The translations under genes and the position numbers were made by a program. Positions 20,667 through 48,292 of a stretch of DNA of 64,000 bases are shown here, one piece after another. The stretch covers positions 24,802 through 88,801 of the forward strand of contig JBAQFA010000009.1 of the NCBI GenBank assembly GCA_049287025.1, written 5' to 3'. Below the pieces are notes generated by a model, which searched no databases, had not been told where the DNA came from, and saw only the letters and a list, made by a program, of their open reading frames with translations. Position 1 is the first letter of the stretch. Every line of letters starts with the position of its first letter. Source of the DNA: Candidatus Magasanikiibacteriota bacterium (GTDB lineage Bacteria > Patescibacteriota > Patescibacteriia > Magasanikbacterales > UBA922).

Positions 20667-21737
20667 ATGAATAATAAAAATATGCCAAAAAAAGAAGAAG
20701 ATATTAAATTAGGGGCGGCTCAGACTGCGATTGACCAAATTAAAGAAAAATATGGTGATGGAGCGATTATGAGATTTAGTGAATCACGCGCTATGGATGT
20801 GCCAGCTGTCTCCACTGGTTCAATCTCTCTTGATATTGCTCTTGGTGTCGGTGGTATGCCTAGAGGTAGAATTATAGAAGTATTTGGTCCAGAAGCCAGT
20901 GGTAAGACTACACTAGCACAACACATTGTATCTGAAGTACAAAAATTGGGGGGAATTGCTGCTTTTGTGGATGCCGAACACGCTCTAGACCCAGATTATG
21001 CTAGAAAGATTGGGGTGGATGTGGATAATTTATTAATTTCCCAACCTGACACTGGTGAACAAGCTCTGGAAATCGTGGAAACATTGGTTCGTTCTAATGC
21101 TGTGGATATTGTGGTGATTGACTCTGTCGCCGCTCTTGTACCAAAAGCAGAAATAGAAGGAGAAATGGGAGACTCACACATGGGTTTACAAGCTCGTTTG
21201 ATGAGTCAAGCTTTGCGCAAGTTGACTGGGATTGTTAGTAAAACAAAAACAATTGTGATTTTTATTAATCAGATCAGACATAAGATTGGTGTGTTTTTTG
21301 GCAATCCAGAAACGACAACTGGTGGTAATGCTCTAAAATTTTATTGTTCTGTACGGGTAGAAGTGCGTCGAGCTGCTCAGATTAAACAAGGTGATAAAAT
21401 TATTGGCAATCGGGTAAAAGTAAAAGTCGTAAAAAATAAAGTAGCCGCTCCATTCCGCACCACTGAATTTGATATCATGTATAATGAAGGCATCTCTCTA
21501 TCTGGAGATTTATTAGATACTGGTGTATTGCACAGAGTGATTAGTAAATCTGGTAATAGTTATGCTTATGGTGAAGAAAAACTTGGTGTTGGTAGAGAAA
21601 AAGCTAAACAATATTTACGAGAAAAGCCAGAATTGATGACAGAGGTTAAAGCCAAGATTTGGGAAGTGGTAAAAGCTGGTGAAGCTCCAGATGAGGAACA
21701 AGGTAATATTACTGATGATGTGAGTGTGGAAGAATAA
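20667..21737 (+). CDS. recA: Recombinase RecA
   Basis: 356 aa; [14 protein letters not shown] Walker A; canonical RecA core. Confidence 0.95.
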
Positions 21738-21780: not shown

Positions 21781-21806
21781 AAAAAGCGGGCTTAAACCCG
21801 CTTTTT
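21781..21806. terminator. Bidirectional terminator between recA (+) and ychF (-)
   Basis: aaaaagcgggc-ttaa-acccgcttttt. Confidence 0.7.
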
Positions 21807-21836
21807 GTTATGTGATATGTGTCTCGTGTTATGTGT

Positions 21837-27584: not shown

Positions 27585-27658
27585 GGGCCGTTAGCTCAGC
27601 TGGCTAGAGCGCTTCCATGGCATGGAAGAGGTCGCAGGTTCAATTCCTGTACGGTCCA
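27585..27658 (+). tRNA. tRNA-Ala (anticodon GGC)
   Basis: GGGCCGT acceptor with G3:U70, anticodon loop AUGGCAU, T-arm GGTTCAATTCC. Confidence 0.8.
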
Positions 27659-28177
27659 CAATATGAGGGGGTATCTTTACTTTATTAGGAGCTGTAATTG
27701 TAAAAGACCTTTACTATCCACTAAATCACTTTTTATAGTGATTTTTTATTTAGGTTTATATATATTATTGTACGACGCATATATATAGCTTTAATTAGTG
27801 TAATAAAACTAAAATTACTACTTAACTACCTATTTTATCCCCTATTTGTTCTTTGTGGAACAATTTCAGTGAACAGTGGCCAGTATGCAGTATTCATAAA
27901 ATACTAAATTATAAAAAATACGTTAGTTTTATTGTAGACTGAAAATTTGGTGTTGTTGTTCTTGCGATCTGATTTGTTGGGAAGCATATTTATAATTAAT
28001 ATGTTCTATGTGGAACAATTATTTATGGTTTATACACAGATAGTGGCACTTATACACAAAAATATCCACTTTTGTGGATATTTGTATAGGATATTGTAGA
28101 CAATAATACAAAATACAATATACACGGAGCAAAATACAAAATCTATGTTGTTGTTTGTATATTGTATTTTGTTTTTG

Positions 28178-28248
28178 TGGACCTAGGCAGAATCGAACTG
28201 CCGTCTCAGCAATGCGAATGCTATATATTACCACTATACTATAGGCCC
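28178..28248 (-). tRNA. tRNA-Ala (anticodon CGC)
   Basis: Reverse-strand GGGCCUA acceptor with G3:U70, anticodon loop UUCGCAU, T-arm GGCAGTTCGATTCTGCC. Confidence 0.7.
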
Positions 28249-28254
28249 GCTTAG

Positions 28255-28326
28255 TGCCCCCAGCATGAATTGAACACACATCTTGTCCTTAGGACGGACC
28301 TGTTCTATCCGTTGAACTATGGGGGC
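28255..28326 (-). tRNA. tRNA-Arg (anticodon CCU)
   Basis: Reverse-strand GCCCCCA acceptor, anticodon loop with CCU, T-arm GTGTGTTCAATTCATGC. Confidence 0.6.
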
Positions 28327-28373: not shown

Positions 28374-29123
28374 TTATTTTATCTCTGGGCAATGATCCCA
28401 CATAAATTTAAACCAGGTTTTATAGCTAGTGGCCAGTGGACGACTAATATTTACAAAAATGGTAATATCGTCACTAATCTTTGTTATTCCGGCGCCAGTA
28501 AAAGACACAACATGATCACCAAAAATGTCTACCATTGAAGGCGTAGAATATTCTTTAGGTAGGTATTTGTAAGGTTTACCTACGGCTTTTGGTACATGAG
28601 GAGCTTGTTTTAGTACTTCAAAATCAAATAAATGTTTATATTTAATACCTCGACGATCCGCATCAACTAAAAATTTATCCAAAAAGGTATTGAGTCTTGG
28701 GTCGAACCAGGCTCCCTTGGCGCCAATACAATAAACATCTTCTTTAGTAGATAATACATCACGAAGAAAATTTTTAAATCCTTCCAGACCTTTATATATG
28801 TAGGCAGCCTCTAAAACAGGATGTTTTTGGTATTCGTGCATCAAGTGTGGCATTTCTTTTTCTAGCCTAGTACGTTTTTCATCAACCAGTTCCATTAGCT
28901 TGGCTGGTTCCACTGGTTTAAATAAAGTGTCGCCATGCCCAATAACTTGAAACACTAAACCTTTTTCAATTAAGCGATTCATTGAGTCATAAATATTCCG
29001 GCGATGAATTTTACTTTTTTTTGAAATATTAGAAACCGTAGTTTGTTTTTCTTGTAAAAGTGTTTCGTAAATTTTGGCTTCGTTTATTGACAATCCTAGT
29101 TCTGTTAAAATTTGGCTATACAT
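28374..29123 (-). CDS. TrmB-family wHTH transcriptional regulator (paralog A)
   Basis: N-terminus NEAKIYETLLQEKQTTVSNISKKSKIHRRNIYDSMNRLIEKGLV; C-terminal TrmB-like domain. Confidence 0.7.
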   Translation of the reverse strand: MYSQILTELGLSINEAKIYETLLQEKQTTVSNISKKSKIHRRNIYDSMNRLIEKGLVFQVIGHGDTLFKPVEPAKLMELVDEKRTRLEKEMPHLMHEYQKHPVLEAAYIYKGLEGFKNFLRDVLSTKEDVYCIGAKGAWFDPRLNTFLDKFLVDADRRGIKYKHLFDFEVLKQAPHVPKAVGKPYKYLPKEYSTPSMVDIFGDHVVSFTGAGITKISDDITIFVNISRPLATSYKTWFKFMWDHCPEIK

Positions 29124-29296
29124 AGCAAAAATATATTAAAGTGGTGTGAAGCCACACCACGTGGTGGTATTTGCCACTCTTTATATATTATATATAATGC
29201 CTTGTTACTTTGCAAGCCGCTGCTGTGCATAAAAGCTAGATGGTGAGCGGGTAATAAGGGGTTCTTTGATAAAACAATTTGAGAAGCGAGGGACAA

Positions 29297-29479
29297 ATGG
29301 AAACTGGAGAAAGGCAAGATGAAGTTACTTGTTTGAAGAAAGAGTTGGAACATGACAAAGATGAGATATATTATTTGCGTTTGGCTATCCTTAATTTGAA
29401 TAGGAAAAAGGAGTATGTCAGAATGCAAAGGATGTTCCGTGGTGGAGAAGCTGTTCTCGACATGTGGGCGCGCTATTAA
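29297..29479 (+). CDS. Small GC-rich ORF (60 aa) in leader of cassette A
   Basis: ATG at 29297 preceded by gagggacaa; METGERQDEVTCLKKELEHDKDEIYYLRL...; weak. Confidence 0.25.
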   Translation: METGERQDEVTCLKKELEHDKDEIYYLRLAILNLNRKKEYVRMQRMFRGGEAVLDMWARY

Positions 29480-29515
29480 CACGGGAGAGGGCTGAAAAAG
29501 CCTAAGGAGGACCTC

Positions 29516-30103
29516 ATGCGTACAATGTTAGTCGCGTTGCTGTCGCTGGTGCTGTTTTCAAGTATTGCTCAGGCCGAAACCTACAACACCAGGTTGCTCC
29601 TGCACGGTCACAAGACCGTCGGTGAGGGATTCGGAGTCGCGGGTTGGGTGATTGCGCCCAACATCACAAGCGTACCGAACAAGTGGGTAACCCTCGTCGG
29701 CCCGTGCTACGATGGACAGGGGTGGGGTGTAGAATTGTTGGCAGGAGCGGTTGTTTCTGGTGGCGAGAGCAAGTTTCTTGTAGATGTCAGAATAACGTTC
29801 ACTCCAAAATTCTTCGGCATCCCCTTGAACACCTGGCACAACTTCCAGTGGATTCGAACCGGAGGCTCTGGCACGGGTTACTGGTATGGACAGGTTGACT
29901 GGGTGTTGCCACTCGGACTTGGACTTCTCGGTACAGAAACCGAGAACACGTTCAACGTGAGTGGCAATGACTGGTCAGTCGCGCCTCACGTCGTGATCTC
30001 TTTCGGTGATCACTTCGCGCTAGTGTTCGCTCCACAAGCTCATTTCAATGCACGTGGCTACACTGGCACGCAAGCGTGGGTTCGTACGGTCGTGAGTCAC
30101 TAG
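29516..30103 (+). CDS. GC-rich secreted hypothetical protein (cassette A)
   Basis: RBS aaggagg; signal peptide MRTMLVALLSLVLFSSIAQA; about 58% GC versus about 33% background. Confidence 0.6.
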   Translation: MRTMLVALLSLVLFSSIAQAETYNTRLLLHGHKTVGEGFGVAGWVIAPNITSVPNKWVTLVGPCYDGQGWGVELLAGAVVSGGESKFLVDVRITFTPKFFGIPLNTWHNFQWIRTGGSGTGYWYGQVDWVLPLGLGLLGTETENTFNVSGNDWSVAPHVVISFGDHFALVFAPQAHFNARGYTGTQAWVRTVVSH

Positions 30104-30175
30104 TCGTTCTTTTATAGGGGGGAGGACTTACTTGAGACTAGTCATCTCACGTGGACCGGCACGTAAAAATCCGGG

Positions 30176-30235
30176 ATTCTAGTTAGTACTAAGTAGATAT
30201 CAAAAAACCACGCCTCATCGGCGGGTTTTTTGTTT
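30176..30235 (+). repeat. About 60-bp direct repeat (copy 1) containing terminator, 3' of cassette A and abutting TrmB paralog B
   Basis: attctagttagtactaagtagatatcaaaaaaccacgcctcatcggcgggttttttgttt; second copy at 31849-31909. Confidence 0.7.
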
Positions 30236-30254
30236 ACTTTGGGTAATTTATGAT

Positions 30255-31049
30255 TTATTTTTTCTTTTTGGCAAGTTGAGAGAGTGGTACGGCCGTATTC
30301 CAAGCTAGTTCATATAGCGCTTTTAGAATTTTTACCAAAGATGTACTTTCTATCATTACACCAATTTTGTGTGGTTTATGAGTGACGAAGACAATTTTTG
30401 ATTCAAAAATATTAATTTCACCAAAAAAGTCCTCAATTCCTGGTAGTTGATTAGGTTTAAGCCATTTAATATGAGTATAAGTCATTGATCCTTTATAATT
30501 CGTCATCCAAGTTCTAGCTGTAGGTGTATCCAAAGCAATAATACGTTCATGAATTTTACGTTTACTGCGTTCACGATTATAGCCTTCACCCCAAGTTTTG
30601 AATTCCGGCCAACTCCAGCCTTCAAAATCGGCAATAGAAAGAATTTCGGTTTTTGAATCTAAGCTCTCCCAATAAATATTTTTTAAACCCTGGGTACCTT
30701 CTTGATATTTGATAACTGGCTTTTCGGCAAACTTATAAATCGAAAATAATTTTGGTAAAACTTTTTCTACATTTAATAATTTATCTTCCCATTGCTTTTT
30801 TTTGTTTTTAATATGTTGAACCAGACGCCCTGGATTTTCCGAAGTATAAATCATTTTCGATCCTTTGCCAGTCGCGCGATCTACCAAACCATACCAACCT
30901 AACTTTTCCAAAGCATAATAACCAAGCGTTCGGTTGATACCAGCTTTTTTGGTTATCTCGGCTACAGTAGCAGGACCAAGTTCGAGCAAGGCTAAATATA
31001 CTTTGCCTTCGGTTTCATCTAAACCTAATTGACTGATTAAATCTTTCAT
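30255..31049 (-). CDS. TrmB-family wHTH transcriptional regulator (paralog B)
   Basis: GKVYLALLELGPATVAEITKKAGINRTLGYYALEKLGWYGLV; about 50% identical to paralog C. Confidence 0.75.
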   Translation of the reverse strand: MKDLISQLGLDETEGKVYLALLELGPATVAEITKKAGINRTLGYYALEKLGWYGLVDRATGKGSKMIYTSENPGRLVQHIKNKKKQWEDKLLNVEKVLPKLFSIYKFAEKPVIKYQEGTQGLKNIYWESLDSKTEILSIADFEGWSWPEFKTWGEGYNRERSKRKIHERIIALDTPTARTWMTNYKGSMTYTHIKWLKPNQLPGIEDFFGEINIFESKIVFVTHKPHKIGVMIESTSLVKILKALYELAWNTAVPLSQLAKKKK

Positions 31050-31301
31050 GTTTTTATTCTACTATATATTTGGAAATGTGTCAAATCTATTTAACAGAAA
31101 ATTATTTATATAGCAAAATACTTTATAATTAGCCAAATATTAATAATTAACTAATAAAACAATATTGACAGTTATTGTAAAATGTGGAATAATAAGTAGT
31201 TCTAGAATGAAAATTCTGGAACCAAATTGATTGGGAGTGTCTGAACACTCTGTATATATGGTCTGGCGTTCTTTACACACGTGCTAGTTGGAGGGAACAT
31301 C

Positions 31302-31727
31302 ATGAAAAGGTGCATCAAGGCTCCGGGAATTAACGCTTTCAGTGGCGAGGGTGAAGTGGGGAAGTTAGAAGATGTCCCCGGAAAACAAGGTTGCCTTCCA
31401 TTTGATCCTAGTCCGGCCGTAGGGGGTTGGATGAAGGACGACAATTGTAAAGTGGAGGCACCACCAGAGGGGTGCACGCTCGAAGTGCCCGAAACGATCC
31501 TATGCCCCAATGGAAAAAACATCCCAGCTGGAAAGTACAAGGTGGGAAAACTGCCTGATGACAAGATTCTGCATCGCTATCATGATCACGTTCTGCCCCT
31601 CACCGATGAGAAGGGGGTCACCCGGCATTATTGCATTGAAAGTTCCGGTAGGCATGTCGACTGGTCGGGATGCGTCTGCATCTTGATTCGTGTGGAGACG
31701 CGCGAAGAGCGACTGCTGATTCAGTAG
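31302..31727 (+). CDS. GC-rich Cys-rich small protein (cassette B)
   Basis: RBS ggaggga before ATG 31302 (track start 31281); 10 Cys in 141 aa. Confidence 0.55.
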   Translation: MKRCIKAPGINAFSGEGEVGKLEDVPGKQGCLPFDPSPAVGGWMKDDNCKVEAPPEGCTLEVPETILCPNGKNIPAGKYKVGKLPDDKILHRYHDHVLPLTDEKGVTRHYCIESSGRHVDWSGCVCILIRVETREERLLIQ

Positions 31728-31747
31728 CCATAAATTAAGGGGGGCAA

Positions 31748-31818
31748 GACGTAGTCTGGATTCGTCAACCAGTCCACCTGCCGGAGAGGTAGGCGTAGGC
31801 CGGCGCGTGAGCTCGGCA
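31748..31818 (+). repeat. Cassette 3' element: AGACGTARTCTGRATTCGTCAAYCA ... core GCGTAGGCCGGCGCGTGAGCTCGGCA
   Basis: Core at 31793-31818; 21 nt after the stop of cassette B ORF; four more copies in the window. Confidence 0.8.
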
Positions 31819-31848
31819 CCGTGCGCCCGACACATTCAAAACGGGCAA

Positions 31849-31909
31849 ATTCTAGTTAGTACTAAGTAGATAACAAAAAACCACGCCCTATCAGCGCGGT
31901 TTTTTGTTT
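31849..31909 (+). repeat. About 60-bp direct repeat (copy 2) with terminator, abutting TrmB paralog C
   Basis: aattctagttagtactaagtagataacaaaaaaccacgccctatcagcgcggttttttgttt. Confidence 0.7.
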
Positions 31910-31928
31910 GTTTTGAATAATTTATAAA

Positions 31929-32732
31929 TTATTTTTTCTTTTTACTAGTTTTAGCAAGCGGTGTAGCTGTAATCCACGCCAGTTCAAAAATCGCTTTTAA
32001 AATATTAGATAAAGCCGTGCTTTCTATAATTATGCCAATAGGGATTGGTTTCTTGAATAAAGCCATCATTACTTTATTATCATAAATATTAATTTCACCA
32101 CCTAAATCTTTGATAGTTGGTACTTGTTCGGGTTTTATCCAGCGATAATTAATATATTTTTTTGATCCTTGATAATGTTTCATCCAATCTCTTCCTTCGG
32201 GTGTATCTAAAACCAAAACGCGTTCAGAAATTTTTCTTTTACTACGTTCGCGGGTATATTCTTTGCCCCATTTAAAAAGATTAAACTCTGGTGTATACCA
32301 AGCTTGCAAATCCAAGACTGATAAAATTTCTGATTTGGCTTCTAAAGTTTCCCAATAAATATTTTTGGCACCCTCAACACCTTCTTGAAATCTAACGCTG
32401 GGTTTTTCGGCCACGGTATAGAGTAAATAAAAATCTGGCAATTGTGATTCTAATTCTTTTTCTTTTCTTTCCCAAGTATTAATTTTTGATTTTACAAAAT
32501 GTTTTAAATTTTTGGGATCTTTGGCTACAAATTGAATGCGTTTCTTTTGTCCAGAAGAACGATTGACTAGGCCAAACCAACCAAGTTTTTCTAGGGCATG
32601 ATAACAAAGGGTGTGACCAATGCCAGCTTTGCGGGCAATGGCGCTGGCGCCAGAAGGTCCAAGTTGTAAAAGGGCAATATAGACTTTGGCTTCTGTTTCT
32701 TCAAAGCCAATGCTTTTAAGAATTTCTAACAT
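31929..32732 (-). CDS. TrmB-family wHTH transcriptional regulator (paralog C)
   Basis: AKVYIALLQLGPSGASAIARKAGIGHTLCYHALEKLGWFGLV; ends KKKK like paralog B. Confidence 0.75.
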   Translation of the reverse strand: MLEILKSIGFEETEAKVYIALLQLGPSGASAIARKAGIGHTLCYHALEKLGWFGLVNRSSGQKKRIQFVAKDPKNLKHFVKSKINTWERKEKELESQLPDFYLLYTVAEKPSVRFQEGVEGAKNIYWETLEAKSEILSVLDLQAWYTPEFNLFKWGKEYTRERSKRKISERVLVLDTPEGRDWMKHYQGSKKYINYRWIKPEQVPTIKDLGGEINIYDNKVMMALFKKPIPIGIIIESTALSNILKAIFELAWITATPLAKTSKKKK

Positions 32733-32963
32733 AGAATTTTATTTTAGAATTTATTAGATATATTTATTATAACACAAAAATAAATTTATTTCAATATCAA
32801 ATTGAAAATAATTACTAGATTGTAAATTTTTATTTAAAATAAGCCAAAAATGGTTTATTTATTTTAAATTGAGTATTGACATACTCCATAATCTAATGCA
32901 TAATTACTTGTTCTGACGATCGAGGATTGGCCTTGAGAGTTGGACGCTAACTGGGAGGGCATC

Positions 32964-33311
32964 ATGGCCGAAGAGCACGAGGTACGGTGTGATAACTGCG
33001 CCCACCACCACGTAGGAAGCGGGGGTTGTTTCGGCAAAGTAGAGAGCAGGTTCCCCATGTACGATTTTCATAGAGGAGTAAAATACTGCATGTGGGGGGG
33101 GACCCCCAGCCGAATTGTGACCTTTTCTAGATTGAAGGGGTGCCCGCTGGGTGTGGAGTTTGTGCCACTCCGCTGGTGTGGTACCTGTGGCAACTTGGTC
33201 CAAACGGACCAAGGGTGTGCTCACCGGTTGGAGGGTTGCGAGGACCCCAGCTACAGGTGCTGGAAGATTCACCCCGACCTCAAGGAGGGTATGAGACAAC
33301 AGTACCTCTAG
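32964..33311 (+). CDS. GC-rich Cys/His-rich small protein (cassette C1), putative zinc-binding
   Basis: sigma70-like promoter ttgaca-17-cataat at 32876-32904; RBS gggaggg; CDNCAHHH...CxxC motifs. Confidence 0.55.
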   Translation: MAEEHEVRCDNCAHHHVGSGGCFGKVESRFPMYDFHRGVKYCMWGGTPSRIVTFSRLKGCPLGVEFVPLRWCGTCGNLVQTDQGCAHRLEGCEDPSYRCWKIHPDLKEGMRQQYL

Positions 33312-33335
33312 ACTACCCACCTATGGGTTAAACAG

Positions 33336-33444
33336 GCGTAGGCCGACGCGTGAGCTCGGCATTCCATTTTTGTCCAAAATATTATTTTTTGCATAAAGAT
33401 GGAGGCGCTCTTTAAAAACAAACAATCCGCACTGGTGGTGTTGG
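33336..33444 (+). repeat. Cassette 3' core motif (33336-33361) plus about 85-bp conserved leader repeat
   Basis: gcgtaggccgacgcgtgagctcggca + attccatttttgt...ataaagatgg...cgctctttaaaaacaaacaa...cactggtggtgttggttg; near-identical to 34186-34292. Confidence 0.8.
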
Positions 33445-33480
33445 TTGAAGAGATATAGTTCTGACTTAACGGAGGCTAGA

Positions 33481-34149
33481 ATGGGATACGACCCAAACCA
33501 AATGGCCCAAAGGTATTTGAGGGTCGACTGGGCCGACGTGAAGGGCTATGCCGCTTACGCGGTAGAGTCCACGTTCGGGGACCAAGTACCACCACCCATA
33601 AAAAGGAGACTCGAGGTATTGGACGGTATAAGGGACAAGGAAGGTCCCGAAGCCGCCTGTCTCGAGGCAGCAAGGATCGAATGTGAATGCCAAGTCGTTC
33701 AGGAGAAAAGAACTGAACGACGGCAGTGGAGAACGGGAGACGACCCATACAAATATGGGTCTTCGTTCTCTTCGAAGTTTGTCATCATAGATTATAATGG
33801 TGAAAAAAGATTCTACATCGCTCATAATTGGCATATGCAGGCCGTTTTCGTTTTCGCCAAAATTCTGGTGGATAGAAATAAAAAAGTCGATTTTCACGTT
33901 CTGGGTGGGGGGTGGTTCCGTGCTAATCATCCCCTAACTGTTGGCGGTTTTAGCGGTGATTTTAGCTCGTTCAAAATCTCTGACTTGAGTGAGGCGTTGG
34001 GTGGGCTTGAATTCACCGACAAAGATCCCGGTGATTGGCGCACGAATTCCATGCGTGCCACCCATATTGATTGGGCTTTTATCGAAAAAGCCCGTGACTC
34101 CTCTGAGAAATACAGGGAGGTATGGAAACGGATCTTTGAGGAGGAATAA
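33481..34149 (+). CDS. GC-rich hypothetical protein (cassette C2)
   Basis: RBS ggaggct + ATG 33481 (track used TTG 33445); 222 aa; about 50% GC. Confidence 0.55.
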   Translation: MGYDPNQMAQRYLRVDWADVKGYAAYAVESTFGDQVPPPIKRRLEVLDGIRDKEGPEAACLEAARIECECQVVQEKRTERRQWRTGDDPYKYGSSFSSKFVIIDYNGEKRFYIAHNWHMQAVFVFAKILVDRNKKVDFHVLGGGWFRANHPLTVGGFSGDFSSFKISDLSEALGGLEFTDKDPGDWRTNSMRATHIDWAFIEKARDSSEKYREVWKRIFEEE

Positions 34150-34150
34150 T

Positions 34151-34292
34151 AGACGTAATCTGATTTCGTCAATCAGCGTAGGCCGGCGCGTTAGCTCGGC
34201 ATTCCATCTTTGTATAAAAATAATTTTATATAAAGATGGTTGTCGCTCTTTAAAAACAAACAACTAACACTGGTGGTGTTGGTTGGTGATAT
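34151..34292 (+). repeat. Cassette 3' element (core 34186-34211) plus leader repeat, second copy
   Basis: agacgtaatctgatttcgtcaatca gcgtaggccggcgcgttagctcggca + attccatctttgt...cactggtggtgttggttg. Confidence 0.8.
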
Positions 34293-34339
34293 ATAAAAAG
34301 GACTGGTGGCGGACACAACCCTTGGAGAAGGAGTTGAAA

Positions 34340-34759
34340 ATGAGTACTGTCAAGATACTCATCATCGACGACGGTGATGAGAAAGTCGATCGACTGAAAG
34401 GTTATGATCGACTTGGCCACCTCCATGGTGTGGAGGTGGTACGCCGATGGAATTTTAATTCGGCTCTTAAGGAAGGGCCGTACGCGTTTAATGATTTGGA
34501 GCAAACAAAGTTTGACGTGATTATTTTGGACTTTACACTGCCAATGGACAGATTCGGTCATGAGATCTTGGATAAAATTAGACACAGTCCCAGGTTTATT
34601 ATTAACGAAAGAACGGTAGTAATTGGCATTTCCACAGAGTGGAAACGTCTATTACAATATGATTTCGGTTTGAATCTTGCGATCTACAAGGAGGAAACGA
34701 TGGCTGACGAACTGGAAACAGCCATCAAGTCCTTCGTCGCCACTGGCAAAGTCAAATAA
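34340..34759 (+). CDS. Orphan CheY-like response-regulator receiver domain protein (cassette C3)
   Basis: RBS gagaaggag + ATG 34340. KILIIDDGDE...DVIILDFTLP matches the REC-domain acidic pocket and phospho-acceptor Asp. No output domain. Confidence 0.55.
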   Translation: MSTVKILIIDDGDEKVDRLKGYDRLGHLHGVEVVRRWNFNSALKEGPYAFNDLEQTKFDVIILDFTLPMDRFGHEILDKIRHSPRFIINERTVVIGISTEWKRLLQYDFGLNLAIYKEETMADELETAIKSFVATGKVK

Positions 34760-34780
34760 TTTGGGGAGGGAAAGACGAAG

Positions 34781-34824
34781 CTTGGGATTTGTCACCCAAC
34801 GTAGGCCGGCGCGTGAGCTCGGCA
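34781..34824 (+). repeat. Cassette 3' element, fourth + strand copy
   Basis: agacgaagcttgggatttgtcacccaa cgtaggccggcgcgtgagctcggca, 22 nt after stop of C3. Confidence 0.75.
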
Positions 34825-34959
34825 ATCTCCTTTTTCGCGAAAGAAAGAGCAAAAAAGATCCAGTAAAACTGGGCTTTTTTGTTTGTGGATAAAATAGTTG
34901 ACAATGTGTCTAATATCGTGTATAGTATATAATATATTATAAACTATATACTATAAACT

Positions 34960-35460
34960 ATGAAAACAGACACTACTGACAAAATTTTAGAGTATATTAA
35001 AGAAAAAGGACAGGTTAAACCAAAAGATATAATTAATTATATTGGTTTTGGTGCGCCTGCTGTTTTTAGACAATTAAAAAAACTCATAAGTGAAGGTAAG
35101 ATAGAAAAAAGTGGCACTCCACCAATGGTTTATTATCATTTTCCGATTGACATAAAAGATATAGAGGTTAACGAAAAGAAAATTTTTGATATAAAAATAA
35201 ATTTAAAAGAATTTGGTATTCATCTTTCAGATAGAGAATCAGCCAAAAGATCGTTATTGTTTATTAAGATGAGGTATAAGAAAATTATTGATAATGTCAA
35301 TAAAATTGAAATTAATTTTGAGGATATAAAAGTACTAGGACCTGGCTGGGCTGACGAATTTATTTCTAATTTATCAAAAGAGTATCCAGGAAAGATAGTT
35401 TTGTTGCCTAGTAATAATGCTAGCATAAAAGCTTCGTTACAATTTATTAATATAAAATAA
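34960..35460 (+). CDS. wHTH DNA-binding protein with C-terminal STAS-like (DUF4325-type) domain
   Basis: N-terminus ILEYIKEKGQVKPKDIINYIGFGAPAVFRQLKKLISEGKI; C-terminus KIEINFEDIKVLGPGWADEFISNL. Confidence 0.45.
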   Translation: MKTDTTDKILEYIKEKGQVKPKDIINYIGFGAPAVFRQLKKLISEGKIEKSGTPPMVYYHFPIDIKDIEVNEKKIFDIKINLKEFGIHLSDRESAKRSLLFIKMRYKKIIDNVNKIEINFEDIKVLGPGWADEFISNLSKEYPGKIVLLPSNNASIKASLQFINIK

Positions 35461-35484
35461 TTTAACATAATTAATTGTTATTTT

Positions 35485-35799
35485 ATGAGCATTGTTTTTC
35501 TTGATGATGATGTGGAAAATTTTATTTATAGTCTAGAAAATAAAACAAAAGCTAAGGTTTTGCGAACGTTGGATTTGCTAGAAGAGTTTGGTTATAATCT
35601 GGGCATGCCACATACAAAAAAGATTAAAAATAATCTTTTTGAATTGAGAGTATTGGGTAGAAATCAGGTGCGATTATTTTATACATTTTTAAAACCAAAT
35701 ATAATTGTTTTGTGTGGCTTTAGAAAGAAGACTCAGAAAATTCCTAGTCATGAATTGGAGAAAGCCCTGCATAAATTAAAGTTGCTTGACAAGATATAA
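35485..35799 (+). CDS. higB: Type II toxin, RelE/HigB (Gp49-like) family
   Basis: 104 aa; ...ELRVLGRNQVRLFYTFLKPNIIVLCGFRKKTQKIP; immediately upstream of XRE-HTH partner. Confidence 0.6.
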   Translation: MSIVFLDDDVENFIYSLENKTKAKVLRTLDLLEEFGYNLGMPHTKKIKNNLFELRVLGRNQVRLFYTFLKPNIIVLCGFRKKTQKIPSHELEKALHKLKLLDKI

Positions 35800-35822
35800 C
35801 ATATATGTTATATTATAAATGT

Positions 35823-36095
35823 ATGAAAAATTACAATAAAATTAAATCAGAAATATTAAAAGACCCTAAGTTCAAAAAAGTCTATGACGATCTTGAGCCA
35901 GAATTTGAATTGGCTCGGCAAATTATTAAAAAGCGTTTGGAATTAGGTTGGTCTCAGTCAGAATTGGCTAGAAAAATGGGTACCAAGCAGTCGGCTATTG
36001 CCAGGTTGGAGTCTGGCGGATATAATCCAAGTATGGCTTTTTTGCAAAAAACAGTTAAGGCATTAAAGGCCGATTTACAGATAATTATTAGTTAA
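35823..36095 (+). CDS. higA: XRE-family HTH antitoxin (HigA-like)
   Basis: LARQIIKKRLELGWSQSELARKMGTKQSAIARLESG; track start 35805; ATG at 35823 likely. Confidence 0.6.
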   Translation: MKNYNKIKSEILKDPKFKKVYDDLEPEFELARQIIKKRLELGWSQSELARKMGTKQSAIARLESGGYNPSMAFLQKTVKALKADLQIIIS

Positions 36096-36098
36096 ATT

Positions 36099-37187
36099 AT
36101 GCAAAATACATTACTTATAATCCTGGCTTTTTTATTACTCGGAGCCATTGCTCTAATATTTTTGTTATACAGAAAAATGGAAAAAGTTGGTCAGCCAAAA
36201 GAAGGTGAACAAAATATGTTCTTACTTTTGCAACAACAAATGCAAGAGCTGAACAAAACCATGGATCAGAAAATGTCTGACACTCACAAGGTCTTGGGAG
36301 AAAATCAGTTGAATATAAATAAAACAATGCAGACCCAATTTGCCCAAAGTAGCAAAATCATTACTGATATCACAGAAAAATTAACTAGTCTAGATAAAAC
36401 TAATCAACAAGTGATTGGATTTTCGGCACAACTATCAAATTTGGAAAAAGTTTTGAAATCACAAAAGCAAAGAGGAAATTTAGGTGAGGCAGGATTAAAA
36501 ATGGTTTTGGAAAATATGATGCCACCAGGCAGTTTTCAACTGCAATATGAATTTCCCGATGGTGATACAGTTGATGCCCTGATAATAACCAAGGAAGGGA
36601 ATATTCCAATAGATGCTAAGTTTTCTTTGGAAAATTATCAACGACTGATAGATTTGGTGGATGAATCTCAACGTGAAAAATTGGAAACAGAATTTAAAAA
36701 TGATTTGAAAAAAAGAATTGATGAAACTTCTAAATATATTAAACCAAAAGATGGCACTTTGGAATTTGCATTTATGTTTATCCCGAGTGAAGCCATATAT
36801 TATGACTTACTTGTTAATGAAGTGGGGGCGGTAAAAGTAAATACGCGAAATTTAATTGATTATGCTTTTAATGAACGCAAGGTCATTATTGTTTCACCCA
36901 CAACTTTTGCTGCTTATCTCCAAACAGTCTTACAAGGTCTGCGGGCTTTCAAAATAGAAGAAGGAGCCAAGGAAATTAAAAAGAATGTAGAAGTCTTAGG
37001 CAAGCATTTACTGGCTTATGAAGATTTTATGAAGAAATTGGGTGTAAGCATGACCACGACAGTTAATCATTATAATACGGCTTATAAAGAATTGGGGAAG
37101 ATTGACAAAGACGTGGTGAGGATTACTGAGGGTGAGAAAAAGATGGAGCCAGTATTACTTGATAAACCAAAGATTGAAAATGATTAA
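36099..37187 (+). CDS. rmuC: DNA recombination protein RmuC
   Basis: N-terminal TM, long coiled-coil, C-terminal RmuC nuclease-like domain (FMFIPSEAIYYDLL). Confidence 0.75.
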   Translation: MQNTLLIILAFLLLGAIALIFLLYRKMEKVGQPKEGEQNMFLLLQQQMQELNKTMDQKMSDTHKVLGENQLNINKTMQTQFAQSSKIITDITEKLTSLDKTNQQVIGFSAQLSNLEKVLKSQKQRGNLGEAGLKMVLENMMPPGSFQLQYEFPDGDTVDALIITKEGNIPIDAKFSLENYQRLIDLVDESQREKLETEFKNDLKKRIDETSKYIKPKDGTLEFAFMFIPSEAIYYDLLVNEVGAVKVNTRNLIDYAFNERKVIIVSPTTFAAYLQTVLQGLRAFKIEEGAKEIKKNVEVLGKHLLAYEDFMKKLGVSMTTTVNHYNTAYKELGKIDKDVVRITEGEKKMEPVLLDKPKIEND

Positions 37188-37204
37188 TATTTAATTAATT
37201 TTTT

Positions 37205-37753
37205 ATGTCAGAAGAAAACAATCTTGAAGAAAAAAAAGAAGAAATTATAGTTCCACCAGTCGTGGTAGCTACAGAACAAAAAGTAGAGGAGAAAATTAAA
37301 AGTGGTGGTTTTTTAAATAGCGGTTGGTGGCCGTTTTTTAGTTGGTTATTATTTTTTGGAATTTTTTGGGGAGTATTTATTTATTTAAAACCAGTGGCCA
37401 GTGATATTGTAAATAGTAAGGCCTTGGAAATTTTTACAAAATATAGCCAATATGTCGGTGTCGTGTTTGGTTTATTATCCATGGTGATTATTTATATTTT
37501 ATTTGGTTTAAAAAAATTGATTTTAAAAGCCAGATTAAATTTTATTAATGCGATAATTTTGGCTTTGGCTTATTTACCTTGGTATTTATTTGCGCGATAT
37601 TTAATTTTATACGAAAAACGCTATACTGATATTGGTCGCGGAGTAATTACGTATGTGGCTGGACCATTAAAAATGGCAGTACTGGTTGTGTTCGTGTTGG
37701 CCGGGGTGTGGTTGATTATTAGTTTGTTATTAAATTTAAAAAAAAGTAAATAA
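37205..37753 (+). CDS. Hypothetical membrane protein (4 TM segments)
   Basis: Hydrophobic segments; no recognisable motif. Confidence 0.5.
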   Translation: MSEENNLEEKKEEIIVPPVVVATEQKVEEKIKSGGFLNSGWWPFFSWLLFFGIFWGVFIYLKPVASDIVNSKALEIFTKYSQYVGVVFGLLSMVIIYILFGLKKLILKARLNFINAIILALAYLPWYLFARYLILYEKRYTDIGRGVITYVAGPLKMAVLVVFVLAGVWLIISLLLNLKKSK

Positions 37754-37754
37754 T

Positions 37755-39149
37755 ATGAAAAAAATATTTTTATATACCTTCATAATTATTGCGCCATTAT
37801 TTTTAACGGGGTGTGTAGGAGATTTACAATCACTGTTGTGTGATTTTTTACCAGATTCTGATCATTGTTTTCAATCGGCCGCGATTCAAGAAGGGCAAGT
37901 AGAAGAATGTGAAAAAGTATCAGGTGAAAATTTTAAAGACACTGGTTCTAATCCACCACGCGACAAATGTTATTTATTAATTGCTGAAAATACGGGCAAT
38001 CTTGATGCTTGTAAACAAATAAAAGGCGGACCAATGTCGTATACTCAAGAGGAATGTATCTTGGGTGCGAGTATAAAGAATGAAGATCCAGCTGGGTGTA
38101 AAATGTTGACTGGTTCTGCGGCGGCACAGTGTAGAAAAGAGCTTGGGGTTAAAATTGATGCTGTCAAAGTAATTGAAGTAGACAAACAAATTGAAGAAAT
38201 AAAAAATTATTTGAAAGATGGTTCGGATCCAGATTTGGAAAAACAACTTAAAGGTTTGGAACAAAGACGCGAAGATATGTTGGGGGTGTTAACCAAGGCC
38301 AATAAGGATGAGTATGAAAAATTATCAGACCCGATTAGTCAAGAAATAATTGGGGACTTTGCCGTGGGTGATATTGACTCAGCGACTAAAAATAAATTAT
38401 TAGAATTTAACAAAAAATTAAAAGATAGTGGGGTGAAAATGAGCACTGAACAATATGAATCTATTCGCGATTATTTGGCTTATGTAAATAATCCAGATAA
38501 TGATATTGAAAATATGGATGGTAGTGGTATGACGAAAGATCGTTGGAATGAAAAAGTGGGGAATGCGGTAGACAAATTAAAATTTTGGAAAACTAATCCC
38601 AGTGAAGCCGAGAAGGGTTGGGATGAACAATTGCGTTTTTATGAAAGAATGCTAGAAAGACAGGCTGCTATAAATCAAGGTATGACAGAGTTGCAGGAAG
38701 ATTTTAATCGTAATATGGGTATGGTGTATGACGCGGCTGGAAATAAAATAGTGGATGTGGCCAAGGATGCTTTTATTGAAAAGTTTTTTGGAGAAATTAC
38801 GGGCAAGACTGTAGGTTGGACAACAATGGTTGTGGGAGAAGCGATTGATACGGTGAAGGCCGAAGCCAAATCAATGGAATTTCGTGGTTTAGCCAGAGCC
38901 TATGATTTGGGCATGGCTGAAGAAGTTGGTAAATTTGGTGGTGATGTAGAAAAAGCTCATGCGGAAGTGGTAAAGAAAATGATGGCTAATCCATATGAAT
39001 ACGAAGATGGCAATCCTTATGCCAAATATGGTAATATTTTGGAAAACAAAGATTGTGATGGATCAAATCCTCATTGTGTGAATAAAGAAGTGTTTTGGAA
39101 AGCTATGAAGAAATCATATAAATATCAACATCAGAGTAGTGGTAGTTAA
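37755..39149 (+). CDS. Lipoprotein, Cys-rich N-terminal region, unknown function
   Basis: Lipobox LFLTGC; 464 aa; coiled-coil-rich C-terminal half. Confidence 0.6.
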   Translation: MKKIFLYTFIIIAPLFLTGCVGDLQSLLCDFLPDSDHCFQSAAIQEGQVEECEKVSGENFKDTGSNPPRDKCYLLIAENTGNLDACKQIKGGPMSYTQEECILGASIKNEDPAGCKMLTGSAAAQCRKELGVKIDAVKVIEVDKQIEEIKNYLKDGSDPDLEKQLKGLEQRREDMLGVLTKANKDEYEKLSDPISQEIIGDFAVGDIDSATKNKLLEFNKKLKDSGVKMSTEQYESIRDYLAYVNNPDNDIENMDGSGMTKDRWNEKVGNAVDKLKFWKTNPSEAEKGWDEQLRFYERMLERQAAINQGMTELQEDFNRNMGMVYDAAGNKIVDVAKDAFIEKFFGEITGKTVGWTTMVVGEAIDTVKAEAKSMEFRGLARAYDLGMAEEVGKFGGDVEKAHAEVVKKMMANPYEYEDGNPYAKYGNILENKDCDGSNPHCVNKEVFWKAMKKSYKYQHQSSGS

Positions 39150-39279
39150 TTACCCAAACTTGACAATTAGCCTAGAATAATATATAATCCGAGCAATCTT
39201 AAATTATGGTTCTCAGCTGTAATTTAGGAAGGCTCTCAAATAATTAAAATTTATAATTTAAAATTGAAAATTTACAAGT

Positions 39280-39540
39280 ATGCCTAATAAACAATCAGCC
39301 AAAAAGGCTTTACGTCAAACAAAAAAGAGAACAGAATTGAATCTTAAAGTAAAAGATACTTATAAGAAAGCAGTCAAAACTATTAACAAAGCAGTGGAAG
39401 CTGGAGAAAAAGAATTGAAAGAACAATTGAGATTAGCGCAAAAAGCTCTTGATAAAGCAGCTAAACGTGGAGTGATTAAGAAAAATACCGCTGGTCGGAA
39501 ATTGAGTCGTTTGGCAAAGAAGGTAAAGAATGTAAAATAA
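39280..39540 (+). CDS. rpsT: 30S ribosomal protein S20
   Basis: MPNKQSAKKALRQTKKRTELNLKVK...; 86 aa basic. Confidence 0.9.
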   Translation: MPNKQSAKKALRQTKKRTELNLKVKDTYKKAVKTINKAVEAGEKELKEQLRLAQKALDKAAKRGVIKKNTAGRKLSRLAKKVKNVK

Positions 39541-39546
39541 AACATT

Positions 39547-39590
39547 AAAAAACAGTAGAGCCGTAGCAATGCTACGGCTCTACTGTTTTT
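39547..39590. terminator. Strong bidirectional terminator (17-bp perfect stem)
   Basis: aaaaacagtagagccgtagca a tgctacggctctactgtttttt. Confidence 0.8.
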
Positions 39591-39602
39591 TAAATGGTTT
39601 GA

Positions 39603-40574
39603 TTAAATAGATAATCTTCCAACAAACAAATCTAATAATAAGTCTGCCTGACCCTGACCAGTTTTTATTTTTTTATCAAAATCTAATAGAGACTGGTAAA
39701 TATTTTTTAGGGTTTGAAGATTATATTTTTTTACAAATGGCAGAGATTTTTTTACTACAAACGGATGCAATTCTAATTTACTGGCCATAATATTGCTACC
39801 AATATTATCCTCGCGGTCAAACAAATCACGCATTTCCAAAAGAATTCTAAACTGACGTAAGACCATAGAAAAAACATAATGGGGATCTTTGCCAATTTTG
39901 TATTGCTCGCGAATCATTTTGTAAACTTGCTTGGATTGGCCAGCGACAATTGCATCTACTAGATTAAATATATTGTCATCAGCACTGGCTTCTAAAAATA
40001 AGTTGACATCTTCAGTTTGAATTTCTTCATTACCTTTGTAAGCTAGCAGTTGTTCAATTAGAGAATTTATTAGCCAAATGTCGCCTTTGGTATTTTGGAC
40101 TAAGAGTTGCAAAGCATGAGAACTGATTTTTCCATTTTTTTCTTTAATTTCAGTGTCAATCCAGGCAGATAATTTGGCGCCAATAAGAGCAGGAAATTCT
40201 TGAGCATATTTTTCTTTTTCTAAACGTTCATAAAATTCCTTGGCCACTTTAGTTTTTGGTTTGCCTTCACCTTCCCAAAAAATATAAACATTATCTTCGG
40301 GTAAGTTTTTTTCTTCCACTCGTTTGAGAATTTGTTCTTGTAGATCACCTTTTTTGGTAGCCGATAACAAATTTTCTAATACTACCATACGTTTTTCGGC
40401 CAAGAATGGCATGGACAAAATTTGTTCCATAATCAAACCCGGTTCTTCTTTTTCACAATCCAAAATTGTCACATTCAAACCTTGGGGGTCGCGATCAATT
40501 TTAAATTTTTCAATCATTTTTTTTAATTGTTTGCGACTGCGAAAAGTGTCAGCGCCGTACAAGAAGATTATCAT
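39603..40574 (-). CDS. holA: DNA polymerase III delta subunit
   Basis: 323 aa; MIIFLYGADTFRSRKQLKKMIEKFK... delta N-terminal domain pattern. Confidence 0.75.
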   Translation of the reverse strand: MIIFLYGADTFRSRKQLKKMIEKFKIDRDPQGLNVTILDCEKEEPGLIMEQILSMPFLAEKRMVVLENLLSATKKGDLQEQILKRVEEKNLPEDNVYIFWEGEGKPKTKVAKEFYERLEKEKYAQEFPALIGAKLSAWIDTEIKEKNGKISSHALQLLVQNTKGDIWLINSLIEQLLAYKGNEEIQTEDVNLFLEASADDNIFNLVDAIVAGQSKQVYKMIREQYKIGKDPHYVFSMVLRQFRILLEMRDLFDREDNIGSNIMASKLELHPFVVKKSLPFVKKYNLQTLKNIYQSLLDFDKKIKTGQGQADLLLDLFVGRLSI

Positions 40575-40753
40575 ATTTTTTTTGTAATCCCGATCCCGAC
40601 TAAGTCGGGAGAGGGATCCCTTTTTAATGCATTTTAACTTGTAATATAAAGAATTTTATTTAGTTAGATGTTTTTTGTTTTGAAAAGGGATTCTTCACTT
40701 CCTCTTCCACTTCATTTCACTCAGTGTCAGAGTCCGTTCAGAATGACAGACGG

Positions 40754-43688: not shown

Positions 43689-43796
43689 GTATGTAAATTT
43701 TCAAAATGATTATAACAGGGTTTGTATTTTTTTTCAAGGGGTTAAAAACCCGCCTGTTGGCGGGTTGTTTAATGTTATTTGTTATCTGAATTCTGA

Positions 43797-47676: not shown

Positions 47677-47702
47677 TGCCGAGCTCACGCGCCGGCCTAC
47701 GC
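47677..47702 (-). repeat. Cassette 3' core motif, reverse-strand copy after cassette D1
   Basis: Revcomp reads ctatggattaaatag GCGTAGGCCGGCGCGTGAGCTCGGCA; the upstream 15 nt also match the copy at 33321. Confidence 0.8.
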
Positions 47703-47784
47703 CTATTTAATCCATAGATGGAGTGCCACTTTTGAATGTGTGTGGCGCACAGTGAAGAGGTGTGGAACAAGCCGGCCATGTTTA

Positions 47785-48228: not shown

Positions 48229-48256
48229 CACTCACCTCCTTGTTTACAAAGAACGT

Positions 48257-48292
48257 TGTCCAACTTTCGAGGTACATCCTCGATTGTCAGAA
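48257..48292 (-). repeat. 36-bp conserved leader repeat upstream of cassette D1 start
   Basis: gtccaactttcgaggtacatcctcgattgtcagaac; second copy at 48681-48716. Confidence 0.7.

Follow-up and report, generated by a model that had tools for sequence, protein, structure and literature searches.

Why do the GC-rich genes of an AT-rich chromosome stand beside regulators of one family, and how did they come to be there? The question is raised by a 64,000-nt stretch of DNA from a Candidatus Magasanikiibacteriota bacterium (assembly GCA_049287025.1, contig JBAQFA010000009.1, positions 24,802 to 88,801; hereafter the window), in which five genes of the TrmB family are accompanied by small open reading frames (ORFs) of deviant composition, here called cargo. 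The GC content of the window is 36%. Among 500-nt segments, all those with a GC content of at least 0.45 adjoin TrmB genes (12.5-13.5, 29.5-30, 31.5-32, 33-34.5 and 48-48.5 kb) and none elsewhere exceeds 0.43; no stretch that reaches 45% GC is more than about 400 nt away from a TrmB paralog. This architecture is real and non-random. As an answer we favour, tentatively and at somewhat less than an even chance, that TrmBL2-like regulators and their targets form local pairs that act as expression sockets, in which the GC-rich ORFs are replaceable and are exchanged probably by homologous recombination through shared ends.

The sequence-only reading from which this analysis started had reported five TrmB genes, and all five are found where it placed them: TrmB_a (254 aa, 13796-14560, - strand), TrmB_b (249 aa, 28374-29123, -), TrmB_c (264 aa, 30255-31049, -), TrmB_d (267 aa, 31929-32732, -) and TrmB_e (262 aa, 48975-49763, +). 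All of them match PF01978 with E-values from 2e-13 to 3e-16 (6e-16 for b, 2e-13 for c, 4e-15 for d and 3e-16 for e) and scores of 50-59 bits against a cut-off of 25.6, which makes them members of the TrmB family; the fold therefore survives the search with hidden Markov models which that reading had proposed. Their native AT-rich composition is also borne out (GC 0.34-0.35; GC at third codon positions, GC3, 0.25-0.29). However, a picture of recent tandem paralogs moving with foreign cargo does not hold. TrmB_c and TrmB_d are 55% identical, TrmB_e is about 40% and TrmB_a and TrmB_b are about 27% identical to the others (27% for b against c and d), so that by sequence they are old paralogs of a Patescibacteria-wide family. 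Homologs of TrmB_d were found in Patescibacteria only, including Magasanik-, Falkow-, Moran- and Paceibacteria.

For comparison, loci were fetched from other assemblies and genomes, and these are given L-numbers. TrmB genes in these loci are often grouped two or three at a time (2-3 paralogs per 13-21 kb in L009, L012, L017, L021 and L023), and 11 of the 12 paralogs with a readable upstream neighbour are divergent from an unannotated gene; the exception, at 6560-7321 of L021, lies behind another gene on the same strand. Such an orientation, divergent from the presumed target, is the classic one of local TrmB regulators, and we read the paralogs, as far as gene order and sequence can tell, as ordinary local regulators. 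In L015, all three TrmB genes (1528-2369, 3051-3773 and 4926-5709) seem frameshifted or split, which is either poor assembly or decay into pseudogenes.

The kind of regulator can be narrowed down by structure prediction. An AlphaFold2 model of TrmB_d (pLDDT 90.5) has its best full-length fold match in TrmBL2 (E 1e-13), and the top eight PDB matches are all TrmBL2 chains, over about 280 columns. The C-terminal domain resembles the phospholipase D (PLD)/Nuc fold and matches Nuc, NucT and PLD3/4. The template modelling (TM) score against TrmBL2 is only 0.32-0.37, presumably due to domain orientation. The model indicates a TrmBL2-like architecture of about 260 aa, with a winged helix-turn-helix (wHTH), a long helix and a PLD-like domain, and without a sugar domain. 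In agreement with the latter, no C-terminal TrmB sugar-binding domain was found in the five paralogs by Pfam at E<=0.01, and the NCBIfam TrmB/TrmBL1 equivalogs score 26-31 bits against cut-offs of 600-650, over the N-terminal part only, which separates the paralogs from TrmB sensu stricto. The TrmB and TrmBL2 proteins of Thermococcales (PF01978; 5BPD, 5BQT, 5BOX) likewise have the winged helix, the long helix and the PLD-like domain, and the length of the window paralogs is like that of TrmBL2. In contrast to them, the window proteins are bacterial (Candidate Phyla Radiation, CPR) with many old paralogs per genome, and their targets in this clade are compositionally deviant, replaceable small ORFs.

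Beside these regulators, eight to nine GC-rich ORFs were confirmed (GC 0.43-0.60; GC3 0.51-0.69, compared with 0.20-0.30 in native genes). Their codon use prefers CTC/CTG to TTA and ACG/ACC to ACT, AGG accounts for 22% of the codons for Arg, compared with 5% in native genes (the presence of a tRNA-Arg(CCU) nearby may be coincidence), and their products are enriched in Cys (2.5% vs 0.5%), Trp, Arg and His. The real starts are internal ATGs with a ribosome-binding site (RBS), at 31302, 32964, 33481, 34340, 12617, 48228 and 48652, and strong RBSs do stand at all GC-rich ORFs, as had been claimed. The ORFs look like real genes because of these strong RBSs, a dN/dS of 0.35-0.41 in the two testable pairs and one beta-barrel family modelled with high confidence. 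For the two ORFs with L009 orthologs, dN/dS is 0.35 and 0.41, compared with 0.02-0.16 in TrmB genes (0.024 for TrmB_c, which shares 96% amino acid identity with its L009 ortholog, and 0.155 for TrmB_d). Values below 1 indicate purifying selection, far weaker than that on TrmB_c and TrmB_d.

The operon of module b opens with a small 60-aa ORF of GC 0.40 (29298-29479, +, RBS GAGGGA), whose slot is filled by ORFs of 106 aa in L026 and 113 aa in L023. The second ORF encodes 195 aa (29516-30103, +, GC3 0.62) and carries a signal peptide, which agrees with the secreted protein that had been predicted here. Its family comprises 93 representative sequences of about 190-200 aa, and the AlphaFold2 model (pLDDT 94) is a 12-strand all-beta barrel, for which the best folds are the small porins KdgM, NanC and Omp32 (TM about 0.5, weak E-values), so that the modelled protein looks like a porin. 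In 3 of 3 genomes with the context read (window, L023 and L025), this family adjoins a TrmB_b-type paralog. To our knowledge, CPR bacteria are generally held to lack an outer membrane, and here a porin-like beta-barrel is encoded in one of them.

Module c carries one ORF of 141 aa (31302-31727, +, GC3 0.56), with homologs in L009 (33-44% amino acid identity; dN/dS 0.41) and L015. Behind TrmB_d follow three: a Cys/His-rich ORF of 115 aa (32964-33311, +, GC3 0.68) with an L009 ortholog of 51% amino acid identity and dN/dS of 0.35, a 222-aa orphan that matches only itself (33481-34149, +), and a 139-aa response-regulator receiver-like ORF (34340-34759, +). The last had been taken for a CheY-like receiver, but its match to PF00072 is weak and below threshold (E 4e-4, 21 bits against a gathering score of 30.2). 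A protein of similar make-up was seen in Falkowbacteria: at 3343-4520 of L012, a TrmB gene diverges from an ORF of 144 aa and another for a protein of 208 aa (GC3 0.50-0.52 vs about 0.28), and the latter has, by eye, a receiver-like N-terminus and a Cys-rich tail, echoing the cargo at 34340-34759.

Two further modules had been proposed away from the main array. The one at 47.6-49.8 kb was verified, with TrmB_e, a GC-rich cargo operon (47677-48715, -) and the 26-nt motif described below. In the direction of transcription, the operon contains a 5' untranslated region (5'UTR) hairpin (48680-48715), a Zn-ribbon ORF (48386-48652), a degenerate copy of the motif with an AT hairpin (48297-48385), a second 5'UTR hairpin (48258-48293), a 147-aa ORF (47785-48228) and an intact motif (47677-47702). 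At 12.4-14.6 kb the proposal stands in part: GC-rich cargo and TrmB_a are both there, but the cargo, a 323-aa orphan ORF of GC 0.60 with its own promoter (12617-13588, +), is convergent with TrmB_a and has no 26-nt motif. The divergent partner of TrmB_a is an NMT1-type ABC transporter operon (14640-17123).

Known families offer little for the cargo. Three cargo proteins were searched among 5.8 billion proteins, and two of them, the 323-aa and 222-aa proteins, have no homolog but themselves. No match to the cargo was found in Pfam (above threshold), PHROGs, NCBIfam, PADLOC or PDB sequences. PADLOC gave only weak matches at the level of helix-turn-helix or receiver domains for cargo and regulators, short of an anti-phage defence system. 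A viral origin of the cargo was considered and rejected, with no matches in IMG/VR for the 26-nt motif, the 222-aa protein or the 195-aa protein.

It had been claimed that every GC-rich ORF has its own sigma70-like promoter. Only three strong promoters (11/12 match) were found in the array at 28-35 kb, starting at 29171, 31165 and 32876. The first (TTGCCA-16-TATAAT) belongs to module b and lies with the candidate operator palindromes GTGGTGTG-N4-CACACCAC and ACCACGTGGT in 29141-29198 (+); the second (TTGACA-17-(TG)AATAAT, 31165-31193, +) drives the cargo of module c; and the third (TTGACA-17-CATAAT) is followed by a conserved 5'UTR hairpin motif (32910-32945) within 32876-32945 (+). The ORFs at 33481 and 34340 have only 9/12 promoter matches, which overlap the 26-nt motif, and are probably co-transcribed. 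The strong promoters themselves lie in AT-rich DNA, and the GC-rich zone starts approximately at the transcription start and runs to the terminator. Each TrmB intergenic region has its own candidate palindrome. The core CACCACGTGGTGGTATTTnCCACTC in the TrmB_b intergenic region is kept in L025, and the core of the candidate TrmB_d operator AATTTATTTCAAT-N5-ATTGAAAATAATT (32783-32813) is kept in 3 of 5 orthologous loci (window, L014 and L015) and divergent in L009 and L016.

Most cassettes also end alike. The 26-nt motif noticed earlier has 5 copies at <=1 mismatch against 0.00 expected in shuffles. The copies start at 31793, 33336, 34176 and 34799 (+) and 47677 (-), 25-83 nt past stop codons, and degenerate copies lie behind the ORFs ending at 30103 and 48386. 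Alignment of 11 copies from four related genomes revealed that the motif is one module (H3) of a composite element in the 3' untranslated region (3'UTR), which consists of a purine-rich run, the hairpin H1 (GACK..MGTC), an optional small hairpin H2 and H3; it is succeeded at internal junctions by an AT-rich hairpin, or else by an intrinsic terminator. In the main array, the element occurs in a degenerate form at 30125-30164 (+; H1-like hairpin GACT..AGTC and degenerate H3, alignments A1 and A4) and at 31738-31818 (+; purine run, H1 at 31748-31766, H2, H3 at 31793-31818). Inter-cassette junctions are found at 33318-33457 (+; H2 and H3 at 33336-33361, AT-rich hairpin at 33362-33404, repeat D9 at 33406-33457; z -4.0) and 34152-34295 (+; H1 at 34152-34170, H3 at 34176-34201, AT hairpin, D9 at 34244-34295; z -4.8), and the terminal 3'UTR lies at 34764-34885 (+; purine run, H1 at 34774-34793, H3 at 34799-34824, intrinsic terminator at 34859-34885; z -2.4). 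Variation also exists at the other end of the transcripts: three cassettes have in common a 36-nt motif at the transcript 5' end that folds as a two-tier hairpin, and two others share a different 5' element, the repeat D9.

The hairpins seem to be kept as structures. H1 is paired at 94.6% with compensatory changes in two pairs (slid controls are paired at 21-50%), and its covariation score was reached by 2 of 500 shuffles. H3 is nearly invariant; its sole variable pair is G-U, A-U or G-C and thus always paired. Minimum free energy folds recover the hairpins, with H3 as a 7-bp GC-rich hairpin, and 4 of 5 3'UTRs beat shuffled sequences (z -2.4 to -4.8). A structure at the RNA level is favoured, because the G-U pairs in H1 and H3 are possible only on the sense strand. 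The motif had been regarded as a site bounding the cassettes. From its pairing pattern it appears to behave as a 3'UTR RNA hairpin module rather than as a proven recombination site.

This element is confined to a narrow clade. A covariance model of H3 run over all fetched loci found 12 copies, in the window, L009, L014 and L015, each behind a cargo ORF, and none in the loci from more distant genomes. In GTDB genomes, JGI metagenomes and IMG/VR, the 26-nt motif was seen only in this clade and in chromosomal contexts; its absence from the rest of the JGI metagenomes is weak evidence, because L014 and L015, which have exact copies, were not returned there. Matches in L004 and L005 were dismissed as chance, since they fall on a stop codon and a terminator of a 63% GC organism. 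With Rfam 15, only tRNAs were detected in the whole window at gathering scores, and a permissive scan of 28.0-35.2 kb gave no match in the motif regions at E<=1. Three other interpretations were tried and abandoned: a hammerhead for the 5'UTR motif (CUGACGA..GAAAG), whose core spacing does not fit and which has no Rfam support; a tRNA-like structure for the 26-nt motif, also a misfit and without Rfam support; and a small ORF after the purine run of the 3' element, whose start codon is not conserved.

What happens between the conserved ends becomes visible in related genomes. In the alignment (A2) of the TrmB_d-cargo region from five genomes (window, L009, L014, L015 and L016), the promoter and the 5'UTR up to ..AAAGTTGGAC are common to 4 of 5 genomes, and L016 shares the promoter only. 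The cargo ORF that follows is homologous in the window and L009, and unrelated ORFs occupy its place in L014, L015 and L016. Homology then returns sharply at CCCACCTATGGGTTAAATAGGCGTAGGCC.. in the same four genomes. An exchange of ORFs between conserved boundary elements is therefore indicated by the alignment of the relatives. The number of units varies too: one cassette lies behind TrmB_d in L014, L015 and L009 and three in the window, and the interval from tRNA-Arg to RmuC contains a single TrmB module in L014 and L016, compared with three in the window, L009 and L015. The tRNA-proximal TrmB paralogs of the window and L009 differ (29% identity), and L025 has a TrmB_b-type module, beside an LTD/PKD gene, where the window has the TrmB_e module. 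On these comparisons, both ORFs and whole modules appear reshuffled, as indicated by the unrelated ORFs per slot, the variable module number and the position of the L025 module. No integrase or transposase was found in the 64 kb, a result that covers nearly all ORFs of >=140 aa, either by Pfam scan or by reading of related loci.

A trivial origin of such patterns would be an assembly or binning artefact, by which GC-rich pieces from a co-occurring organism were joined into an AT-rich contig. Two contig ends fit this idea: the assembly of the same organism in L002 (contig JBAQOB010000100.1, which matches window 31668-42732 at 100% identity) stops within a cargo ORF at window 31668, and L011, a short contig, terminates 36 nt away from a copy of the motif. 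However, the AT/GC junctions are the same in L002, in L009/L010/L011 (three assemblies, 100% identical), in L025/L026, and in L003 and L014, which are 99.97% identical and come from two different metagenomes. GC-rich cargo orthologs lie in syntenic positions in diverged genomes, and across the junctions the expression signals (promoters, ribosome-binding sites, terminators) fit together. Because of the identical junctions in independent assemblies and the syntenic cargo, the pattern is not an assembly chimera, and an artefact is scarcely credible. The window also contains dnaN, dnaA, recA (20667-21737), ftsK, polA, a PBP1a-type gene and an H+-pyrophosphatase-like ORF, from which it follows that it belongs to the core chromosome of a Magasanikbacteria-type CPR bacterium and lies close to the origin of replication; one TrmB and two cargo proteins are on record in NCBI metagenome-assembled genomes (MAGs) named Candidatus Magasanikiibacteriota. 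Contigs that end inside or next to cargo or motif (window 31668 for L002, position 1-62 of L011) suggest assembly or coverage breaks at GC-rich, repeat-bearing islets. Binning by composition could also discard such pieces, so that MAGs may contain too few of these islets.

Under the socket reading, the gene of a TrmBL2-like protein would lie back to back with a strong sigma70-type promoter, from which one to three small genes are expressed. The target transcripts of this clade would start with a conserved 5'-terminal hairpin and end with H1/H2/H3, the coding part between them being replaceable. By its sequence, the palindromic operator in the shared intergenic region is where the TrmB paralog might bind and gate expression, and the UTR hairpins might act in the mRNA as stabilisers or processing sites. 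Since all cassettes share the same ends, they could be swapped by ordinary recombination, in which these ends would provide short homologies for RecA-dependent, integrase-free replacement of ORFs. Incoming DNA would derive from related, often GC-richer, Patescibacteria, so that GC-richness might be the mark of a pool of circulating cassettes, perhaps strengthened by selection for stable transcripts.

Several points weigh against this account. The homology arms are about 36-46 nt, which is short for RecA-dependent recombination, and no cassette is near-identical in two different backgrounds. We infer the exchange of cassettes from presence and absence, and TrmB binding, an RNA-level role of the hairpins and the source of the GC are likewise inferred. 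At 12.6-13.6 kb, the motif is missing and the TrmB gene is not divergent from the cargo. No donor was found: a search of 5.8e9 proteins left two cargo proteins as orphans, viral relatives did not turn up, and the motif was seen only on chromosomes of the clade. Finally, GC3 of 0.56-0.74 is kept despite near-saturated synonymous sites, so that import from a pool needs repeated replacement or an added force.

Could a known system explain the arrangement better? Integron arrays are the closest in layout, and an integron-type, site-specific system would use H3, with or without its flanking hairpins, as a recombination site in folded single-stranded DNA, with the recombinase encoded outside the window. 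As in integrons, the same structured repeat stands behind each of the small ORFs, which point in one direction, a promoter lies upstream, content is variable and cassette number behind TrmB_d goes from 1 to 3, with sharp boundaries; tyrosine recombinase genes were also seen near TrmB paralogs in L012 and L021. Yet neither IntI nor any tyrosine recombinase is present in the 64 kb, where the neighbours are RmuC, PolA, RecA and FtsK. The attC sites of integrons are imperfect palindromes of 57-141 nt with the inverted core sites R'' and R'. No paired inverted core sites of this type were found at the junctions by inspection, no attC model having been run. In addition, the window cassettes share a 5'UTR, which is unexpected for integron cassettes, each array is tied to its own regulator, the G-U pairs suit sense-strand RNA better than DNA, and the motif was found on no plasmid-like or viral contig. 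We consider this system decidedly improbable.

In their ends, the cassettes recall the repetitive extragenic palindromes (REP) and bacterial interspersed mosaic elements (BIME), the pneumococcal BOX and the Neisseria Correia repeats, which are short GC-rich modular hairpins in 3' or inter-cistronic positions, as are H1, H2, H3 and the AT hairpin. H3 is a short GC-rich palindrome 25-83 nt past stop codons, the position typical of REP, and an effect at the mRNA level is plausible for the window hairpins, as for REP/BOX-type repeats. Over the 64 kb, however, there are only five copies, all behind GC-rich cargo, and no RAYT or IS200-like transposase was found; the element also belongs to a narrow clade. 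The TrmB/GC-cassette arrangement has much in common with integron arrays and REP/BOX repeats, but it lacks the defining features of integrons, and within the 64 kb neither the many dispersed copies nor the RAYT gene of REP/BIME repeats were seen.

More generally, the locus might consist of ordinary acquired islets at hot spots together with a lineage-specific REP/BOX-like repeat. TrmB genes, as the commonest local regulators of the phylum, would then merely mark variable regions and have no special functional link to the cargo. The main array does abut tRNA-Ala(CGC) and tRNA-Arg(CCU) (28177-28326, -; ARAGORN and Rfam), which form one fixed border of the variable locus and flank the TrmB_d ortholog in L014 and L016 as well, and like tRNA-linked islets it has deviant composition and content that varies among relatives. 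Genomic islands and intra-phylum transfer are reported to be common in Patescibacteria (PMC12455944). TrmB paralogs are frequent, as the grouped loci above demonstrate, at 12.6 kb cargo and TrmB do not form a regulatory pair, and some TrmB neighbours are native in composition (L006, L012 at 10001, L017 at 8001, and L023). On the other side, five GC islands lie beside five TrmB genes (5/5 in 64 kb), the same cargo family is tied to the same TrmB subfamily over large distances, and the repeat is confined to cargo 3'UTRs, with the 5'UTR conserved too. There is neither an integrase or transposase in the window nor, in a repeat search of the whole window, any direct repeat, tRNA-derived or other, bounding the array. 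Modules of the same kind occur at two non-tRNA loci (12.6 kb and 48 kb), and the regulator half of the modules is native in composition and old, unlike in tRNA-linked islets. Taken together, we regard ordinary acquired islets as unlikely.

The last part of the question is why the cargo is GC-rich. The composition had been called foreign, but no donor of it was found, and two of the three searched cargo proteins are without homologs. The notion of arbitrary foreign cargo also fails for the porin-like family. Its gene has GC3 of 0.62 in the window and 0.61 in L025, whose TrmB_b genes are 73% identical at the nucleotide level. In the distant L023, from a 33% GC genome, the family stands beside the same TrmB subfamily, a TrmB_b-type paralog, with native, AT-rich composition (GC3 0.29). 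GC-rich genes divergent from TrmB were again found in Falkowbacteria L012 (GC3 0.50 and 0.52) and in L017 (GC3 0.61). The gene of L017 (14832-15470; host a 42% GC Patescibacteria genome) encodes a 212-aa protein with seven CGPAGL(V/A)GGEQKI repeats, divergent from another TrmB paralog. Three readings of the GC-richness may apply: the genes were imported again and again from a pool of higher GC inside the phylum, selection acts on the transcripts, or conversion is biased. According to a survey, most gene transfer into Patescibacteria comes from other Patescibacteria (PMC12455944).

The second and third of these lead to an alternative in which GC is maintained in place. The cargo would then be long-resident native genes under RNA selection (long-lived, structured mRNAs resisting AU-directed or toxin RNases) or GC-biased repair or conversion, and the turnover of ORFs would be secondary. 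The extent of the GC-rich zone from transcription start to terminator fits this alternative, as do the 5' and 3' hairpins, of a kind known to stabilise mRNAs, and the lack of a detectable foreign donor. So do the cargo orthologs of the window and L009, with GC3 of 0.56-0.74 in both although dS is 1.25-1.55, the porin-like family, GC-rich in the window and L025 but AT-rich in L023, and the recurrence in L012 and L017. However, a two-state model calibrated on 528 native four-fold sites indicates that the cargo value of about 0.64 at four-fold sites (GC4) also fits vertical descent, with amelioration still going on, from an ancestor with four-fold GC of about 0.9, so that active maintenance of GC is not proven. 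Such an ancestor would need a very GC-rich donor, of which there is no trace, and the three readings therefore stay. Conversion should leave gradients, yet the adjacent TrmB genes have GC3 of 0.25; we know of no precedent for selection lifting GC3 from 0.25 to 0.65 in a handful of genes; and unrelated ORFs in one slot still require a replacement mechanism. Maintenance in place is in our view rather unlikely, though by no means far-fetched.

A bolder variant of the socket reading would make TrmBL2-like paralogs of Patescibacteria the gatekeepers of a GC-rich accessory compartment, with sockets that have shared structured ends, swaps without a recombinase, and GC actively maintained or recognised. 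If true, this would be the mirror image of xenogeneic silencing, in an AT-rich genome. The known xenogeneic silencers (H-NS, Lsr2, MvaT and Rok) recognise AT-rich DNA in GC-richer genomes. As with them, a DNA-binding family stands beside genes of deviant composition, and TrmBL2, the best structural relative of TrmB_d, is a chromatin-type repressor. In contrast, the deviant DNA of the window is GC-rich in an AT-rich genome, the paralog-specific candidate palindromes suggest ordinary operators, and nothing points to composition-driven binding or spreading. This variant is very doubtful.

Genomes of CPR/Patescibacteria are tiny and have few regulators. Full-text literature searches on TrmB in the Candidate Phyla Radiation, on GC-rich islands of Patescibacteria and on Magasanikbacteria gave no description of the present arrangement, and nothing on TrmB in this group or on such GC islets. 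Its repeatable signature combines a TrmB paralog, a strong promoter and a small GC-rich ORF between structured ends; the genes so marked evolve fast and encode secreted, Cys-rich or homolog-free proteins, the class expected to mediate host contact. If the conserved ends do mediate exchange, this would be a cassette system working without an integrase. The composition gap (GC3 about 0.6 vs 0.25) persists across species, which makes import, selection and biased conversion testable against each other.

Other features of the window deserve mention. The array is bordered by tRNA-Ala(GGC), tRNA-Ala(CGC) and tRNA-Arg(CCU) at 27585-28326. A palindromic repeat, TATTTGTATAGnnnnnnCTATACA, occurs at 4887-4910, 5096-5119 and 28079-28102; two copies are located between dnaA and lspA, and the third just before tRNA-Ala. 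The dnaA-lspA interval is probably oriC, because the cumulative GC skew turns there. Similar TGTATAC..CTATACA units, with TGTGGATAA-like boxes, were found in L025 and L012. A sequence like TTTTTGTTATCTGATATCTGCAC has four intergenic copies in the window (692-721, 7057-7086, 21799-21828 and 43773-43795).

Between the cargo array and RmuC (34960-36095) lie a wHTH+DUF4325 gene and a Gp49(HigB-like)/HTH_3 toxin-antitoxin pair, native and AT-rich in composition; L014/L003 lack these genes, and in L009 their place is taken by a different MarR+DUF4325 pair. Directly downstream of TrmB_e, a 1186-aa protein with internal repeats is encoded (49909-53469), whose L025 homolog contains LTD and PKD domains and adjoins a TrmB_b-type paralog.

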